From an uncultured Eisenbergiella sp. (GTDB lineage Bacteria; Bacillota; Clostridia; Lachnospirales; Lachnospiraceae): a stretch of DNA of 64,000 nt. Shown piece by piece: positions 1,530 to 9,902 of this stretch. A program made the translations under genes and the position numbers. The stretch spans positions 11,201-75,200 of the forward strand of contig CANRGX010000005.1 of the NCBI GenBank assembly GCA_947630215.1, read 5' to 3'. How positions within the stretch are numbered: the first letter of the stretch is position 1; each line of letters opens with the position of its first letter. Below the pieces are notes generated by a model. That model ran no database searches. It worked only from the letters and a program-made list of their open reading frames with translations, and was not told where the DNA came from.

Positions 1530-2171
1530 TTACAGCTTGGAATACCCGTACCCGTTTACCATGGCGTCCAGCCGCTGGCGGTTCTTGCAGAACGGGCAGG
1601 CATAGGCTTCATAGGCCTGATAGCCGGGCACATCCTCCGTGGTGAAAATGCACTCCACCCTGTGACCGTTGATACTGCTGATCGCGCTGAACACGGAACA
1701 GATCTGCTGCACATGGCCGCCGTAATAATCGATGCACTCCATGCTGCGGCTGATGGTCAGACCCGTGGTGGAGGTGGCCAGCAGCAAAAGCACATTTTTG
1801 CCCCGGATGGCATGTACCAGATTATCCCGGAAGATCATCTGATTGTTGATATTAAATTCCGGGGTCACCACATATACGGTCTGGTGCGCGTTGTGGATGG
1901 GGAAGTTCCCCCTTTCCAGCTCCTCCGCCAGATAGGCGCCGATGACCTCGCTGCCGTCCATGCAGACGATGGTGTCGATGGCCGTTTCAATGGGAAAACG
2001 CTGCACAAACTCCCTGGCCACGGCACGGGCCTCGCTGCTTCTGGTCTTTAAGCCGGTCATATCCACATAGTAGTTGATATGGGAATGGCTGGTGGCAAAA
2101 TGTCCCGGTATGGCGCGCAGGACAATATTGTTCCCCGACTTTGAGTAAAATTTCATGGCTTTGTCTTCCAT
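1530..2171 (-). CDS. Phosphoribosyltransferase (orotate PRTase-like)
   Basis: 'GHFATSHSHINYYVD' plus a PRPP-loop-like 'NVLLLLATSTTG'. Start set at MEDKAM (2171) after RBS AAGGGGG; own promoter TTGCAA-17-TATACT at 2222-2194. Confidence 0.7.
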   Translation of the reverse strand: MEDKAMKFYSKSGNNIVLRAIPGHFATSHSHINYYVDMTGLKTRSSEARAVAREFVQRFPIETAIDTIVCMDGSEVIGAYLAEELERGNFPIHNAHQTVYVVTPEFNINNQMIFRDNLVHAIRGKNVLLLLATSTTGLTISRSMECIDYYGGHVQQICSVFSAISSINGHRVECIFTTEDVPGYQAYEAYACPFCKNRQRLDAMVNGYGYSKL

Positions 2172-2228
2172 GCTGTAACCCCCTTTTTCTTTCAGTATAC
2201 CTGTTATAGCGGGATCTTGCAAGCAAAT

Positions 2229-4448
2229 TCAGCAGAATCCCTCTCTGCCCTCCATGAAATACCGGACCAGATCCGCCATGGCCGACGTGTCCTTTACGCC
2301 GCCGGTCTCAAAGGCCGAGTGCATGGCAAGCTGAGCCAGACCGATATCCGCCGTGGAGATCGACACATGCGCCGTGGAAATGTTGCCCAGCGTGGAACCG
2401 CCGGCAATGTCCGACCGGTTCGCAAAATCCTGCAGGGCAATGCCGTGTTGGCGGCAGATACTGCGCACCAGCGCGGCGGAACAGGCGTCCGTGGCATAGC
2501 GCTGGCTGCCCTGGAACTTGAGCACCACCCCGCCGTTTAAATACGGGCGGCAGCCGGCGTCGCTCTTCCCGGGATAGTTGGGATGCACCGCGTGGCCGTT
2601 ATCCGCCGACAAAAGGAAGCTGCTTTGCAAAAACTCCCTTTTTTCCCGCGCGCGATCTATGCCCAGTTCCTCCATCACAATATCCAGCACTTCCGAAAGC
2701 AGCGTGGAATCCGCTCCCTGCCGGGTGCTGCTCCCTACCTCCTCGTTGTCAAACAGCGCGTAAACCGTCACATACGAATCCGGCGTGCCGTCCAAAAATC
2801 CCTTCAGGGTGGAGAACACGCACTGCAGATCGTCCAGACGCGGCGCGCCGATAAAGGCATTGTCCGCCCCCAGGATCCGCCCCTTGTCCCGGTTATACAC
2901 ATACAGATCGCTTCCCAGTATCTCCTCCTGGGGGATCCCCAGATTTCCTGCGCACAGCTCCCGCAGGGTCAGCTCCTGGTTCTGGCAGAACAGGGGCGGC
3001 AAATCCTCCTGCGGATTGAGCACCTGCCCGTCGTTGACCTTGCGGTTAAAGTGAATGGCAAGGCTGGGGATCACCAGCATATCCTTCCGGAAATCCACCA
3101 GCTTCTGCACGATATTCCCACTGTCCGGATCCCGGAACACCACTCTGCCCGCCACGCCAAGGGGCCGATCAAACCAGGTGCTTAAAATCGTGCCGCCGTA
3201 CGTTTCGGTGTTGAGCTTTACATAGCGGTTTTCCAGCCGGATTTCCGGCTGCTCCTTGATCTTAAAGCAGGGGGAATCGCTGTGGCTGGCCACAATGCGG
3301 AAACCGGACGCCTTTCCCTTCGGAAGACGCACCGCCACCACAGAGGATCCGTTCTGCATGGTATAATAGGATCGGCCCGGCACAAGCCCTTCTTTTCCGA
3401 TCTGTTCCATCCGTTCAAAGCCCACCTCCCGCAGCAGCTTTTCCACATTGGCGGCGGCGTGAAAAGCGGTGGGACTTTCATCAATAAAATGCAGCATTTC
3501 CCTGGTCAGTTCCAGCGGATCGGACTTTTCCCGCATCTCCTCCGCATAACTGCCGGGCCGGATTTCCGTCACCAGCCCCTTTTCCATGAGAAACGCGGGG
3601 TGATAGGAGAGCTTGGCCTGCCGCAGCCCTTCTGCCCCGGCATCGTCTTCCCGGTTTACATAAGTATATCCTTCCATGGCGTGTTCCACAAACTGCTGGT
3701 TGATCATGGAATAGGCCCCGTCCACATCGGCCAGCGCCTTTTCAAAATGTACCACGAACATATCCTTTCCACATGGTTCTCCCAGTGCAAAGGCCACCAC
3801 CCGTCCGCCGGCGCGCAGAAGACCGCCGGTCAGATGCAGCGCCTGCATTTCCCGCAGGCCATGGATGGTCACGGCGATTTCTTCTTCCTTTTCGCCGCCT
3901 TCCCGGTGATCGTTGTACGCCCACCATTCCCGCGCCATCTCCAGACATTCTTCCACATTTTCGGGCGTGATGGGCTCATAACTCCAGTCCGGATATTCCT
4001 TTTGAAATTTGTTGCAATGGTTCTTTTTGCCGTGCAGTTCCTTCCCGGACAGATGCAACAGCTTTTCCCGCTCGTACACATAGTCCGCGTTATCCCTGTC
4101 ATAATCGATCCGAAAGCGTCCGGGATACAGCGCCTCCAGCCGTTGAAACTGCTCCGGGCTCACCAGGTGCATCTGAAACGGCCGTCCCACCCGCGCAAAC
4201 CATGCGGACAGCTCGTCCACGGTTTTTCTCAGATTGACCGCCCCCTGGGGAAAGCTGACAGACATTCCGCCCTCGCCGGATTCAAACACCAGGCTCCCTT
4301 CCACGATGCTCCAGAAAATAGGGTAATACGGCTTCCACAGATAGTTATTGCCAAAGGTGAACTCACAGTTGCGGACCGGCTCCTTCTCATAATAACTTTC
4401 GATCAGCTCCCGATCCCCCAGTTCCAGTTCCTTCCACAGCAGTCTCAT
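2229..4448 (-). CDS. Fusion: DUF2156 (aminoacyl-transferase/LPG-synthase-C-like) domain plus M18 aspartyl aminopeptidase
   Basis: N-terminal ~295 aa carry 'CEFTFGNNYLW', 'DYVY..EKL..LSGK..HGKKNH.NKF', 'HFEKA' and 'YVNREDDAG.EGLRQAKLSYHP'. C-terminal ~430 aa carry M18 motifs 'SPTAFHA', 'SHSDSP', 'RLDD', 'DNEEVGS', 'AVHPNY' and 'AMHS'. Confidence 0.8.
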   Translation of the reverse strand: MRLLWKELELGDRELIESYYEKEPVRNCEFTFGNNYLWKPYYPIFWSIVEGSLVFESGEGGMSVSFPQGAVNLRKTVDELSAWFARVGRPFQMHLVSPEQFQRLEALYPGRFRIDYDRDNADYVYEREKLLHLSGKELHGKKNHCNKFQKEYPDWSYEPITPENVEECLEMAREWWAYNDHREGGEKEEEIAVTIHGLREMQALHLTGGLLRAGGRVVAFALGEPCGKDMFVVHFEKALADVDGAYSMINQQFVEHAMEGYTYVNREDDAGAEGLRQAKLSYHPAFLMEKGLVTEIRPGSYAEEMREKSDPLELTREMLHFIDESPTAFHAAANVEKLLREVGFERMEQIGKEGLVPGRSYYTMQNGSSVVAVRLPKGKASGFRIVASHSDSPCFKIKEQPEIRLENRYVKLNTETYGGTILSTWFDRPLGVAGRVVFRDPDSGNIVQKLVDFRKDMLVIPSLAIHFNRKVNDGQVLNPQEDLPPLFCQNQELTLRELCAGNLGIPQEEILGSDLYVYNRDKGRILGADNAFIGAPRLDDLQCVFSTLKGFLDGTPDSYVTVYALFDNEEVGSSTRQGADSTLLSEVLDIVMEELGIDRAREKREFLQSSFLLSADNGHAVHPNYPGKSDAGCRPYLNGGVVLKFQGSQRYATDACSAALVRSICRQHGIALQDFANRSDIAGGSTLGNISTAHVSISTADIGLAQLAMHSAFETGGVKDTSAMADLVRYFMEGREGFC

Positions 4449-4491
4449 TTTTCTTTTCCTTCCGTTTTCTCCGGTTTTCTTTCGACAGCCC

Positions 4492-5577
4492 TTACACGGC
4501 CGGATTCATCCGCGCCAGCTTCGCCGCCTGATCCGCGGCGATGAGATTGTCCACCAGTTCCTGAATATCCCCGTCCATAATGGCGTCGATCTTATAGAGC
4601 GTCAGCTTGATGCGGTGGTCGGTCACCCGCCCCTGGGGGAAATTGTAGGTCCGGATTTTCTCCGAACGGTCCCCGGTTCCCACCTGGCTGCGTCTCAGCT
4701 GGGCTTCCTCGTCGTGACGCTTCTGCTGTTCCAGATCGTAGAGCTTGGCCCGCAGCACCTTCAGCGCCTTGTCCTTGTTCTTAAGCTGGCTCTTTTCATC
4801 CTGACAGGAGATCACGATTCCCGTGGGAATATGGGTCAGGCGGACGGCGGAGTCAGTGGTATTGACGCACTGGCCCCCGTTTCCGGACGCCCGAAATACG
4901 TCAAACCGGCAGTCGTTCATGTCGATCTGCACGTCAAAATCCTCCACCTCCGGCATAATCGCCACGGTGATGGTAGACGTATGGATACGGCCGCCGCTCT
5001 CCGTCTCCGGCACGCGCTGGACCCGGTGCACACCGCTTTCGTACTTCAGACGGGAATAGGCCCCCTGACCGGAAATCAGAAAGCTGACATATTTCATGCC
5101 GCCGATGCCGATTTCCTCTGCGTCCATGGTCTCCACGCGCCAGTGCTGGCGCTCCGCATAGCGGACGTAGAGACGGTAAATCTGCGCGGCGAAAAGCGCG
5201 GCTTCGTCCCCGCCCGCGCCGGCGCGGATCTCCACGATCACGTTCTTATCGTCGTTGGGATCCTTGGGCAGCAAAAGCACCTTCAGCTGTTTCTCCAGGG
5301 CGTCGATCTGCTCCCGCGCGCTGCTCAGTTCTTCCTTGAGCATCTCGCGCATTTCCCCATCCTTTTCCGTCTCCAGCATAGCGGTGCCGTCTTCGATATC
5401 CTGCTCGCATTTTTTATAGGCACGATAGGCCTCCACAATGGGAGCCAGATCGCTCTGCTCCTTCATGAGCGCGCGAAACCGGGCCTGATCGGCCGTCACC
5501 GAAGGCCCGTTGAGCTCCCCCATCACTTCTTCATAACGGATCAGCAGATCCTCCAGCTTATCAAACATACTCCTCAT
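4492..5577 (-). CDS. prfA: Peptide chain release factor 1
   Basis: GGQ motif ([15 protein letters not shown]), PxT anticodon motif (RVPETES); adjacent to prmC. Confidence 0.97.
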
Positions 5578-5597
5578 CCTCCGGGCCGCCCGGCTTC

Positions 5598-6428
5598 TCA
5601 GTATTCTCCGTACACCACACGATCCAGGCCCGCATAATCCGGGACCGCCGTCACGTTCCGAAATCCTGCTTCCCGCAGCAGCGCCGTAACCGCCTCCCTC
5701 TGATCGTATCCGATTTCCAAAAAAAGCTGCCCGCCTCCGCAGAGGTGCCGCCTGCTCTCCTTCACAATGCGCCGGTAGAAGGAAAGCCCGTCGCTTCCTC
5801 CGTCCAGCGCCATCAGCGGTTCGTGCAGCCGCACTTCCTCCATCAGCGTCCCGATCACATCGGATCGGATGTAGGGAGGATTGGAAACGATGATCTCAAA
5901 CTGCCCTTCCACCTTTTCAAACAGGTCGCTCTGAAGAAATGCAGCGTTTGGCTCCTGCAGGACCAGCGCATTTTGTCTGGCCACATCCAGCGCTTTGGCG
6001 GACAGGTCGGTTCCCACGCCGGTACAGCCGTTGGAATAGTGCAGCAGACTCAATAAAATGCAGCCCGATCCCGTACACAGATCCAGAATCCGAAACCCGT
6101 CGTGCAGATTTTTTAAGACCTCCTCCGTCAGGATCTCCGTATCCTGACGCGGGATCAGCACGTCCGGGGTCACCAGAAAGGAGAGCCCCATAAACGACTG
6201 CTCCCCGGTCAGATACTGCAAAGGCCGATGCGCCCCCCGCGCCTGAATCAAAGACAGATAGCGCGCCGTCTGTTCCTGGGAAACAGGACGTTCTCCATGG
6301 GCAAGCAAATCGTTCCTTCCGGTATGACAGACAAATTCCAGCAGCAGCCTGGCGTCCAGATCCGCTTCCCGGATCCCTTTCCGCGCCAGAGTCCGCTTTC
6401 CTGTGTCGTACAGTTCCCGATAGGTCAT
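5598..6428 (-). CDS. prmC: Release factor glutamine methyltransferase
   Basis: 'VLIPRQDTE', SAM motif 'LDLCTGSGC', NPPY motif. Confidence 0.95.
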
Positions 6429-7435
6429 GACGGTTCGCCGCCTTCTGCAGGTGCCGCGCCGGATTCCTGTTCTTCCCAGGCATCTATATCATATCCAAAT
6501 GTTTCCTTCAAATACGCTTTCCAGTCAAAAACCGCTTCCACGGACGCAATGGCCACTTCGATCATGGCGTCGTCCGGCTCTTTCGTGGTCAGTTTCTGCA
6601 GCAGCATACCGGGCGCGGAAAGAAGCCGCACGAGAAAGGCGTCGCTTCTGCCCGCCAGCCGGATGAACTCATAGGAAATGCCCGCAATGACAGGAATGAG
6701 CAAAATCCGTACCACCAGCCGCAGCAGCGGATTGGAAAGGCGGATAAACAAAAACAGTATCACGCTGACCAGCATGACGAACAAAAGGAAGCTGGTGCCG
6801 CAGCGCCGGTGCAGCCGGGAGCTTCTGCGCACATTTTTCACCGTCAGTTCCCTTCCCCGTTCAATGCAGTTGATACACTTATGCTCCGCGCCGTGGTACA
6901 TATACACTCTGCGGATATCCTTCATGGCCGAAATGGCCGCCACATACCCCACGAAAATCGCAATGCGCAAAAGTCCCTCCAGAATCGCCAGAAGGGAGGC
7001 GTTGCGTACATAAGAGGCAAACAGCGTACTGATAAAATAGGGCAGCACCACAAAGATCGCCACCGCCAGCAGCAGCGAAAAAGCCACTGTGGCGCCCGTC
7101 GCGAACTTCTCCCGCGCGCCGGAGGCTCCTGCAATCTTTTTCTCCTTCCCCTTCCGGTTGTCCTCCTCCTCATAAAAATCCGCAGACCAGGTCAGGGTGC
7201 GCATTCCCAGCACCAGAGAATCCACAAAATTGAACACGCCGCGCACAAACGGAATCCGGGAAACGGCATGACTGCCCCAGATACCGGTATAGTCCTCCGT
7301 TTTCACCTCGATCTGCCCGTCGGGCCTTCTGACGGCCACCGCGTAGCGATCCTGATTTTTCATCATCACGCCTTCCAGCACCGCCTGCCCGCCAATACCG
7401 CAGTACGCCCTCTTTTTTCTTTTCTTTTTTGCCAT
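6425..7435 (-). CDS. DUF1385 domain membrane protein
   Basis: 'IGGQAVLEGVMM', 'YHGAEHK', 'HRRCGTSF', 'TTKEPDD'; usual position between rpmE and prmC. Confidence 0.85.
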   Translation of the reverse strand: MAKKKRKKRAYCGIGGQAVLEGVMMKNQDRYAVAVRRPDGQIEVKTEDYTGIWGSHAVSRIPFVRGVFNFVDSLVLGMRTLTWSADFYEEEDNRKGKEKKIAGASGAREKFATGATVAFSLLLAVAIFVVLPYFISTLFASYVRNASLLAILEGLLRIAIFVGYVAAISAMKDIRRVYMYHGAEHKCINCIERGRELTVKNVRRSSRLHRRCGTSFLLFVMLVSVILFLFIRLSNPLLRLVVRILLIPVIAGISYEFIRLAGRSDAFLVRLLSAPGMLLQKLTTKEPDDAMIEVAIASVEAVFDWKAYLKETFGYDIDAWEEQESGAAPAEGGEPS

Positions 7436-7451
7436 GGAAAACCTCTTTATA

Positions 7452-7491
7452 AAAAGCAAGGTTGAGATTCTCGTGAAACCTCAACCTTGCG
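7452..7491 (-). terminator. Intrinsic terminator after rpmE
   Basis: Minus strand GCAAGGTTGAG...CTCAACCTTGC followed by TTTTT. Confidence 0.7.
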
Positions 7492-7496
7492 CCTTC

Positions 7497-7700
7497 TCAA
7501 TTTCCTACGCCGTACTTCCTGTTGAACTTATCAATACGTCCGCGCGCCTGGGCCGCTTTCTGCTGGCCGGTGTAAAATGAATGGCACTTGGAACACACTT
7601 CCACGTGAATCTCCGGCTTGGTCGATCCGGTCACGAAGGTATTCCCGCAGTTGCACGTAACGGTCGCCTGATAGTACTCAGGATGGATTCCCTCTTTCAT
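7497..7700 (-). CDS. rpmE: 50S ribosomal protein L31 (Zn-binding type)
   Basis: 'MKEGIHPEY', CNC...CSKCH zinc ligands, '[11 protein letters not shown]'. Confidence 0.95.
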
Positions 7701-7797
7701 GTCCTTTCACCTCATTCTATATCATTTTCAGTTGCTTGTTCCCATCCGTTTGCCCCAGAGGGCATATGTTCACAGGACACCTGTAAACAGCTTTCTC

Positions 7798-7826
7798 ATT
7801 GTAACACAGCTTTTTTTTTGATGCAA
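7798..7826 (-). promoter_or_regulatory. sigma70-type promoter for rpmE
   Basis: Minus strand TTGCAT, 17 bp, TGT-TACAAT (extended -10). Confidence 0.65.
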
Positions 7827-7856
7827 GGGGTTTTCTGAAATAAACCCGCCCTTTTC

Positions 7857-9638
7857 TCAAATAAACCGCATTTTCTTTACGGACTGGACAAACTCCGCGT
7901 TGTTTCTGGTTTTGGCAAACAGATCCAGCACCCGGTCCGCGGCCTCGTCGGATTTCATCACGTTGAGCGCCCGCCGGACAATGTTGATGGCTTCCATTTC
8001 CTCATGCGTCAGCAGCAGATCCTCCCTGCGCGTGCTGGTCTTGGGAATGTCGATGGCGGGAAATACCCTGCGCTCGGACAGCTTGCGATCCAGCACCAGC
8101 TCCATGTTGCCGGTGCCCTTAAATTCCTCGTAGATCACATCGTCCATCTTGGACCCCGTATCCACCAGCGCCGTGGCCAGAATGGTCAGACTTCCGCCCT
8201 CGCGCATATTGCGGGCCGCGCCGAAGAACCGTTTGGGCATATGCAGGGCCGCCGGGTCGATGCCGCCCGACAGCGTGCGGCCACTGGGCTGTACCACCAG
8301 GTTGTAGGCCCGGGCCAGCCGGGTAATGCTGTCCAACAGAATCATGACGTCCTGTTTATGTTCCACCAGACGCCGGGCGCGCTCCACCACCATTTCCGCC
8401 ACCCGCTTATGGTGATCCGGCAGCTCGTCAAAGGTGGAATAGATCACCTCCACGTTGGGGCCCTCTACCGTCTCGCGCATATCGGTGACTTCCTCCGGCC
8501 GTTCGTCGATCAGAAGAATGATCAGGTGCATATCCGGATAATTGTGTTTCACGCTCATCGCCACTTCTTTTAATAAGGTAGTTTTTCCGGCTTTGGGCGG
8601 GGAAACGATCATGCCCCTCTGTCCTTTTCCGATGGGGCTGAGCAAATCCATAATGCGCATGGCCACAGAAGAACCGTATTTTTCCAGCTTCAGCCTGCTG
8701 TCCGGGAAAATAGGGGTCATGTCCTCAAAATTGAGTCTGCGGCAGGCCACCTCCGGCGCGTAGCCGTTGATGCTTTTTACGTACAGCAGCGCAGAAAATT
8801 TCTCGTTCTGCGTGCGAATGCGGGTATTGCCCTCCAGAATATCCCCGGTCTTTAAGCCGAACCGGCGGATCTGGCTGGGCGCCACATAAATATCGTTCTC
8901 CCCGGGCAGATAATTGGCCGAACGGATAAAACCGTAGCCGTCCGCCATGACTTCTAAAATCCCGCTGACCGTAATGCCGCTGTCCAGTTCCACCGGGAAC
9001 TTGTCCTCCTCCTCGTTGGCAGAGGGGGCCGTTCCTTTATTGTACGGACTGTAATAGCGCGGCTCCTGGCTGCGGGACATCACGGCCTTCCCGCCCTCCG
9101 GATTCTGGGAAGCCTGGTGCGAGCCGGAATAGGCTGCGGCCTGCTCCCGCACGGACGGATCCTGCGCTGTCTGTTCCTTTCCTCCTGCGCTCTGCGCCGG
9201 CCGTTCCCGCACGTTTTCCCGGACGCGCTCTCTCTGCCTGGTGTGGTTTGGCCCCTGCTGCCTTGCCGCCTCCCGGGGCTTTCCGACACGTCCCCTTGCG
9301 TCCTGGGACTTACCCTCCGGCCTGTCCGCGTCCGGGGCCTTTTTCCCGGCCTGCGTCTCTTTTTCAGCCTGCGTCTCTTTTTCGGCCTGTGTCTCTTTTT
9401 CGGCCTGTGTCTCTTTCTCAACTCTTGTCTCTTTTTCGGCCCGCGTCTCTTTTTCCGTCCCTGCCTTGGGCCCTTCTTCCAGTTTCCGGGCCCCTTCCGC
9501 CGCATCCAGAGCAAGCATTGCCTCCACCACGTCCGCTTTTTTCATGGAAGAAACGCCTTTAATGCCCCGTGCCTTCGCGATTTCTTTCAGATCATGAACC
9601 GCCAGGGATTCATATCTGGCCCTCATCACTTTCAACAT
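7857..9638 (-). CDS. rho: Transcription termination factor Rho with a long low-complexity N-terminal insertion
   Basis: '[14 protein letters not shown]', P-loop 'PPKAGKT', 'LIDERPEEV', '[12 protein letters not shown]', 'KGTGNME'. Start moved to MLKV (9638) after AAGGAG. Confidence 0.95.
9348..9455 (-). repeat. 18-bp tandem repeat x6 encoding EKET(Q/R)(A/V) in Rho
   Basis: Translated [36 protein letters not shown]; 108 bp. Confidence 0.9.
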
Positions 9639-9902
9639 ACTTTCCTGCTCCTTTTCACTTGTTTTCCCTGGTATTTTCCTGAACACTAGAGGAATTGCAA
9701 TGTCTGATTTGCGATAGAACATACCGATTCTGGAAATTTTCCTTTATATGTAGCTGTATCATATCACACATTTTAAAAAATAGAAAGAGGTTTTTTAATT
9801 TATCTTGATCCGGCGGGTCAAATATTATATGATGTAAAAGTATCCCGCGCCTGCGGGCGGATTTTTGAATTACACACGGAAAGAAAGCAGGTATGAAAAA
9901 CT

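Follow-up and report, generated by a model that had tools for sequence, protein, structure and literature searches.

The stretch examined here, hereafter the window, comprises 64,000 nucleotides of an uncultured Eisenbergiella sp. (GenBank assembly GCA_947630215.1, contig CANRGX010000005.1, positions 11,201 to 75,200 of the forward strand), and it carries on its minus strand a gene that joins a DUF2156 transferase-like domain to an M18 metallo-aminopeptidase. The gene is one uninterrupted open reading frame (ORF; 2229..4448, read from an ATG at 4448 to a TGA stop at 2229-2231) of 739 amino acids plus the stop (protein P0001), and what looks like a Shine-Dalgarno element, GGAAGGA, lies 8 nt 5′ of the start at 4457..4463 on the same strand. 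Residues 1-295 (3564..4448) form the DUF2156/LPG_synthase_C domain, a tandem GNAT of the BT_3689 (PDB 2HQY) type according to Pfam, the match to 2HQY and an AlphaFold2 (AF2) model; the PF09924 match covers residues 26-286 and profile positions 7-291 of 298 (E 4e-52; 177.5 bits, the cut-off being 27.5; 180.5 bits in a genome-wide profile search). Residues 313-739 (2232..3512) form the peptidase domain, recognized by PF02127 at residues 321-731 (E 1e-108, 364 bits), by the NCBIfam equivalog NF002759, “M18 family aminopeptidase” (487 bits against a cut-off of 356), and by alignment with the Pseudomonas aeruginosa enzyme discussed below. Between them lies a linker of about 17 residues (296-312; 3513..3563) that varies in length and sequence among fused orthologues and is delimited by the orthologue alignment, its substitution rates and low model confidence. 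The linker also holds GGAGGAG (3543->3537) abutting an internal ATG (3536->3534; together 3534-3543) that encodes Met305, with only 0-2 nt between motif and ATG.

A sequence-only reading had proposed a single 739-aa frame with intact motif sets in both domains, a short linker at about 3530-3570 and a GGAGGAG just 5′ of an internal ATG, and all of these descriptions hold, the linker being now placed at 3513-3563. Structural modelling of the whole chain was less informative. The full-length AF2 model, built with 15 close homologues, is poor (mean pLDDT 64, pTM 0.50, with pLDDT below 50 at residues 300-308) and was excluded from any judgement of domain packing because of its low confidence, and a complex prediction pairing the M18 domain with the DUF2156 domain returned scores of 0.00 and 0.00, which amount to no answer and are not used as evidence.

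Because the same reading had warned of a possible miscalled stop at the junction, the junction was compared with independently assembled sequence. Contigs from three independent studies (2016, 2021 and 2024; runs X7, X8 and X17) cover either the whole gene or the junction without any indel, and none of the 37 variants listed in them creates a stop (26 are synonymous and 11 non-synonymous). Assembly error is thus ruled out for the fused frame. An internal start at Met305 was considered as a conserved feature and rejected, since the other fused orthologues do not conserve this Met, which is absent from, for example, L013, L014 and L016. Contigs from an RNA run (X20) cover parts of both domains and were likewise set aside as evidence for a single transcript, given that positions 3278-3874 are uncovered and DNA carry-over is possible.

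The fused arrangement is shared by many species. Among 20 species-level genomes of the genus, the window genome included, eight carry the fused frame (G000, G014, G006, G016, G002, G013, G004 and G012), five carry DUF2156 and M18 as separate adjacent genes (divided by a same-frame stop, placed in different frames, or overlapping), five carry the M18 orthologue alone, and the remaining two, both incomplete, show only a paralogue. In a protein database the fusion forms 22 clusters at 90% identity, and at 50% identity both domains occur together in only one cluster among 1.84 billion representatives. Split pairs are also found in other Lachnospiraceae, including Kineothrix and the complete genome of Lachnospiraceae bacterium CE91-St56 (AP025576). 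In split forms generally, the two genes are separated by a same-frame stop, lie in other frames, or are spaced by anything from an overlap to a gap (about -14 to +115 nt). Counting fused and adjacent forms together, 23 distinct loci carry the pair. The expectation that the two-domain architecture and the adjacency would recur in other genomes is therefore borne out, and the observation that had been named as capable of overturning the sequence-only reading, namely stops in the linker of relatives with neither fusion nor adjacency elsewhere, was not made: stops do occur in some congeners, but eight of the 20 genomes are fused and others keep the genes side by side. Our literature searches found no paper describing a DUF2156-M18 architecture, and a protein atlas query gave generic DUF2156 names only.

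On a tree built from the concatenated domains, at least three to four changes between fused and split states are required, and two proteins with much shorter linkers (P0022 and P0023) form a second clade that was fused separately. Between fused orthologues, the ratio of nonsynonymous to synonymous substitution rates (dN/dS) is 0.04-0.21 in both domains, at synonymous divergences (dS) of about 0.7-2 that are near saturation; in the linker it is 0.4-0.9 or saturated, indicating a segment that evolves almost freely. Both domains are under strong purifying selection. Since many species share the fusion, a second fused clade exists, selection has acted while dS approached saturation, and the internal Met is not conserved, the fusion is no artefact and not of recent date, but an old merger of two neighbours that is confined to particular lineages. 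Of the suggestion that a recent stop-loss had merged adjacent genes, the merger stands, as relatives carry close or overlapping separate genes, whereas the recency does not, given at least eight species and near-saturated dS.

The peptidase half is the easier of the two to place. The C-terminal 435 residues of the protein align over their whole length with PaAP, an aminopeptidase of P. aeruginosa (3WT4/2IJZ; E 2.5e-87), and keep the M18 metal-binding and catalytic motifs HSDSP, RLDDL, DNEEVGS, SADNGH and AMHS; in 29 orthologues the family's HxD, D, EE, D and H motifs show no variation. The full set of metal-binding and catalytic motifs is thus shared with PaAP/ApeB (PDB 3WT4, 4NJQ and 2IJZ), which differs in being a stand-alone protein of about 429 residues, whereas the window protein has a 300-residue domain in front. 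M18 enzymes are dodecameric and prefer N-terminal Asp or Glu. The genome of the window (G000) encodes another M18 protein, on contig C33:16290-17597, a distant paralogue only 27% identical to the M18 half and assigned to the “aminopeptidase 1” (PRK02256) type; nearly all relatives have it as well.

Placing the DUF2156 half is less straightforward. Across 31 orthologues 61 alignment columns are invariant, K279 among them, a residue that may correspond to the catalytic Lys of FemX and DhpH. The only sequence match in the PDB is 2HQY (BT_3689), over its full length (E 5e-63 with the single sequence, 1.7e-89 with a profile), and no MprF structure in the PDB is matched by sequence, even with a profile. 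The AF2 model of this half (pLDDT 88) superposes on 2HQY with a template modelling (TM) score of 0.92 at 2.0 Å and 37% identity in the Foldseek alignment. The next folds are the MprF synthase domains (4V36, 5VRV, 6LV0 and 4V34; TM 0.63-0.66), FemX (0.60-0.62) and the aminoacyl-tRNA (aa-tRNA)-dependent peptide synthases Sbb17 and Sba18 (0.55-0.58), and tandem GNATs that use acyl-CoA score below 0.47. In the model a basic helix (residues 136-151) lies between the two GNAT halves, with H139, K141, N143, H144 and N146 invariant alongside conserved Lys or Arg; a positively charged helix has been described as common to aa-tRNA transferases (PMC6103681), so that model and alignment together show both the tandem-GNAT fold and the charged helix of that group. 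By full-length sequence and fold likeness to 2HQY, and with no membrane domain, the half belongs to the BT_3689-type subfamily. It is not of the MprF/aminoacyl-phosphatidylglycerol synthase (aaPGS) kind, in which a flippase domain precedes the synthase: the ORF starts at DUF2156 and the gene upstream is prfA. A genome-wide profile search found no other PF09924 gene in the genome, and hence no MprF.

The donor is where the two lines of comparison diverge. Characterised DUF2156 enzymes all use aa-tRNA and modify lipids (PMC7334510, PMC8913301), yet one paper reports acetyl-CoA in the active site of 2HQY and also reports that HPB8_1270, a DUF2156 protein of Helicobacter pylori, takes part in acetylating lysines of RNase J (PMC10700544). 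The fold shared with MprF and FemAB that the sequence-only reading named fits the structural scores, whereas the use of aa-tRNA is an assumption, because the closest homologue is reported with acetyl-CoA and there is no sequence match to MprF.

Comparison with better-known systems brings out what is and is not familiar in the protein. BT_3689 itself is similar in size and has the same basic inter-GNAT helix and a C-terminal EGLRxAKLSYxP motif, but it is a free protein of 305 residues with no peptidase attached. MprF/aaPGS shares PF09924 and the tandem-GNAT fold, and its gene usually stands beside a hydrolase gene (AhyD, PA0919 or AcvB/VirJ), a pairing common among characterised DUF2156 synthases (PMC7334510, PMC6103681). 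It differs in its flippase domain and extracytoplasmic esterase partner, where the window protein has no flippase and carries a cytosolic clan-MH metallo-aminopeptidase in cis, and no neighbouring gene of the window protein points to a lipid substrate such as that of MprF. The fungal ergosteryl-Asp and ergosteryl-Gly synthases, ErdS and ErgS, are likewise soluble or free-standing DUF2156 enzymes, and ErdS is in addition a fusion protein (of aspartyl-tRNA synthetase and DUF2156) that handles Asp and has a dedicated hydrolase gene, ErdH, nearby (PMC7334510, PMC8913301). [quoted passage not shown] Finally, FemX and the Sbb17/Sba18/Orf11-type enzymes share the tandem-GNAT fold and the tRNA-binding helix, and the amide bonds that they make on soluble acceptors leave the alpha-amine free (PMC12945691), but they are only 9-15% identical, belong to other families, and lie in cell-wall or antibiotic clusters as opposed to the housekeeping context of the fusion.

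That context is a conserved rho-DUF1385-prmC-prfA block, within window positions 4449-9722. The gene for release factor 1 (RF1), prfA, at 4492..5577 on the minus strand (TIGR00019, 536 bits), ends 43 nt upstream of the fusion and is preceded by prmC, the release-factor N5-glutamine methyltransferase gene, at 5598..6428 (minus; TIGR03534, 282 bits), so the position just downstream of prmC-prfA that the sequence-only reading gave is correct. Next come a DUF1385 gene (6425..7459, minus; Pfam E 5e-95, and synteny) and, beyond it on the same strand, rho. Six nucleotides after the fusion stop lies a conserved 230-aa gene, dn230 (1530..2222, minus), which resembles the PyrE and Apt phosphoribosyltransferases weakly and below threshold (NCBIfam E 9e-5 and 2e-4) and has no Pfam or PDB match. 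It follows M18 in most relatives, with or without DUF2156, and a CspB-like germination subtilase is often next; in the window the place just past the conserved block is taken instead by a plus-strand ORF of 229 residues with choline-binding (cell-wall-binding) repeats (709-1398). A strong, 15-pair terminator-like hairpin followed by a T-run (7456-7490, minus) separates rho from the genes downstream, and because nothing comparable stands between prfA and the fusion, DUF1385-prmC-prfA-fusion-dn230 may be one operon.

The same neighbourhood can be followed well beyond the genus. In a sample of DUF2156 orthologues (52-58% identity) from 12 other genera, six (L094, L097, L099, L100, L102 and L104) lie directly behind rho-DUF1385-prmC-prfA or one gene away from it, and in five genera (L097, L098, L100, L101 and L102) DUF2156 is followed, in place of M18, by two housekeeping class I/II aminotransferase genes (PRK06836-type and hisC). 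One genome (G108) has the order prfA-DUF2156-M18 of the window, and at loci with a DUF2156-M18 pair the upstream genes vary while dn230 and the CspB-like subtilase recur downstream. Linkage of prfA and DUF2156 is seen on both sides of the DUF2156 tree, in many Lachnospiraceae genera, and is wider than the linkage to M18; some genera keep DUF2156 with prfA, others with M18. The most economical history starts from the order rho-DUF1385-prmC-prfA-DUF2156-M18-dn230-csp in an ancestor, which was broken on either side of DUF2156 depending on the lineage and which would account for the adjacency of DUF2156 and M18. The linkage to rho-DUF1385-prmC-prfA also hints at a translation-related role for BT_3689-type DUF2156 proteins. 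Three metagenome proteins from the European Nucleotide Archive (P0024, P0025 and P0026; 624-654 aa) have RF1 (PCRF and RF-1 domains) fused without a linker to a DUF2156 domain 52% identical to that of the window; they were rejected as an unsafe basis for a functional link to RF1, as they come from single short contigs, one with a frameshift-like junction, and may be errors.

Each of the two genes, to judge from gene content, can do without the other. Four genomes of the same genus (G017, G009, G019 and G003; 97-99% complete) keep the M18 orthologue with no DUF2156 gene nearby, detected, or left as a remnant, and loci titled E. tayi and E. porci likewise show the M18 orthologue with neither DUF2156 nor a remnant nearby. 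Conversely, three genomes (G361, G227 and G140; 93-100% complete) keep the DUF2156 orthologue, and M18 is seen there only as a paralogue 25-28% identical. The M18 N-terminus appears to accept fusions readily: in other lineages it is joined to a TrmB-type tRNA methyltransferase domain (Methyltransf_4; P0081, 676 aa) and to a helix-turn-helix domain (P0134 and P0166). For DUF2156 domains of this type, the commonest fusion is to a C-terminal Eis-like GNAT (Acetyltransf_9/1/7) in proteins of about 460-600 aa (P0027-P0053; e.g., MEY8332541.1 of Lachnospiraceae bacterium 47-T17), which is more widespread than the M18 fusion and equally uncharacterised, and which NCBI annotates as “GNAT family N-acetyltransferase”.

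Several explanations can be envisioned for a protein of this kind. The one we favour, to which we would give a probability of about one half, is a true fusion of neighbouring genes, bifunctional and tolerated, in which the halves are not catalytically coupled; it is preferred to a module acting on a single substrate because of the ancestral gene order, the independent occurrence of the two genes, and the other N-terminal fusions of M18. The ancestral Lachnospiraceae probably had a soluble DUF2156 gene between the rho-DUF1385-prmC-prfA and M18-dn230 blocks; loss of the stop and of a short spacer in an Eisenbergiella subclade, and separately in another clade, would then have produced one polypeptide with a presumably flexible, fast-evolving linker of 15-25 residues. 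Both halves would remain working enzymes. The C-terminal half would be an ordinary M18 binuclear-metal aminopeptidase, with the dodecameric assembly and the Asp/Glu preference expected from its family, and the N-terminal half a BT_3689-type tandem-GNAT transferase that would load a soluble acceptor with either an aminoacyl group taken from aa-tRNA or an acyl group taken from acyl-CoA. The fusion would most likely bring only obligatory co-expression and tethering, with 12 transferase domains on each peptidase particle, and we infer that it probably did not create a dedicated cycle of addition and removal. Several observations weigh against this explanation. At least two clades gained or kept the fusion, and the two genes are adjacent among orthologues down to about 52% identity, as expected of partners; overlapping stop and start codons in several split forms suggest translational coupling; and the same type of DUF2156 is fused to Eis-like GNATs, which also act on free amino groups, hinting at a shared substrate class. 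The habitual pairing of characterised DUF2156 synthases with a hydrolase gene (PMC7334510, PMC6103681) points the same way, and the case for a lack of coupling is itself an argument from absence.

The sequence-only reading had itself put forward a coupled writer and eraser of N-terminal residues as a possibility. In its general form, the DUF2156 half would take Asp or Glu from its charged tRNA and place it on a soluble acceptor's amine or hydroxyl, the acceptor being a peptide or protein N-terminus, a metabolite or a lipid head group, and the M18 half would remove the residue, mirroring in one chain MprF with AhyD or PA0919 and ErdS with ErdH. The idea is chemically sensible, and Aat, Bpt and ATE1, the analogy drawn in that reading, are aa-tRNA transferases of the GNAT superfamily. 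Bpt and ATE1 act on N-terminal Asp and Glu, the very residues that M18 enzymes remove. The idea is consistent with membership of PF09924, with the fact that the nearest folds after 2HQY (MprF, FemX and Sbb17/Sba18) are all aa-tRNA transferases while acyl-CoA tandem GNATs fall below 0.47, and with the invariant basic helix at residues 136-151, a feature of such enzymes (PMC6103681). A place behind prfA would suit a tRNA-linked function, characterised DUF2156 synthases as a rule have a hydrolase gene as partner (PMC7334510), and both fusion partners, M18 and the Eis-like GNAT, act on free alpha-amino groups. We nevertheless regard it as improbable: MprF structures are not matched by sequence, the closest homologue is reported with acetyl-CoA (PMC10700544), each gene is found without the other, and a synthase constitutively fused to its hydrolase would run a futile cycle unless regulated. 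The N-degron version fares no better. No ClpS, L/F-transferase (Leu_Phe_trans) or ATE/Bpt (ATE_C) domain was found in the 98.98%-complete genome with PF02617, PF03588 and PF04377, although controls match in reference genomes, and the Aat, Bpt and ATE1 families are absent from the best 50 ranks of the fold search with the DUF2156 model; the analogy is thus left without a known reader in this genome, there being no ClpS, Aat or ATE/Bpt match. With a 2HQY-type transferase half, no N-degron parts found, genes that occur apart, and an adjacency that fits an ancestral order, the proposed N-terminal writer/eraser is unsupported.

An unlikely alternative takes the donor to be acyl-CoA, with the DUF2156 half acylating N-termini or lysines after trimming by M18, or acylating the released Asp or Glu, which would make the protein a module for N-terminal maturation or salvage. 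It draws on BT_3689, the closest fold at TM 0.92 and reported with acetyl-CoA, and on the link between HPB8_1270 and RNase J lysine acetylation (PMC10700544); relatives fused to GNAT acetyltransferase domains carry acetyltransferase names, and protein-modifying PrmC is encoded in what may be the same operon. Set against this, the acetyl-CoA in 2HQY is taken from that paper's statement, the H. pylori evidence is genetic and indirect, the overall fold ranks closer to aa-tRNA transferases than to acyl-CoA tandem GNATs, and the two genes are independent in relatives. More speculative still, and best treated as a long shot, is the proposal that BT_3689-type proteins in general depend on aa-tRNA and attach an acidic residue, its alpha-amine left free, to some cytosolic acceptor (the N-terminus of a peptide or protein, or a metabolite), with their recurrent fusion partners supplying the remaining two steps of a single cycle, M18 as the eraser and the Eis-like GNAT as an N-acetyl capper; if true, it would place tRNA-dependent reversible aminoacylation outside lipids and the cell wall and beside the gene for RF1. 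Least credible, to the point of being extremely improbable, is that a stop was lost through a base-calling error or a chimeric assembly, or that initiation at Met305 yields a separate M18 protein and renders the fusion irrelevant, for although GGAGGAG immediately precedes the internal ATG and the linker of some congeners contains a same-frame stop, the junction is bridged without indel or stop by the three studies, the fused frame is kept across many species under purifying selection, the motif stands only 0-2 nt from its ATG, and Met305 is missing in several fused orthologues.

Overall, the fusion is a novel combination of known kinds of protein, of modest interest as a variant and of value mainly as a handle on the soluble BT_3689-type branch of DUF2156, which is common in gut Bacillota and Bacteroidota yet uncharacterised, and for which fusion to a well-understood aminopeptidase is one of few contextual clues. 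The handle is an easy one experimentally, as the M18 half reports on folding and assembly while the DUF2156 half can be assayed with aa-tRNA versus acetyl-CoA. If the two halves were coupled, tRNA-dependent aminoacylation and its reversal would extend to cytosolic targets. If they are uncoupled, as the comparative data favour, the protein would counsel caution, in that Rosetta-stone fusions of ancestrally adjacent housekeeping genes need not share a pathway.

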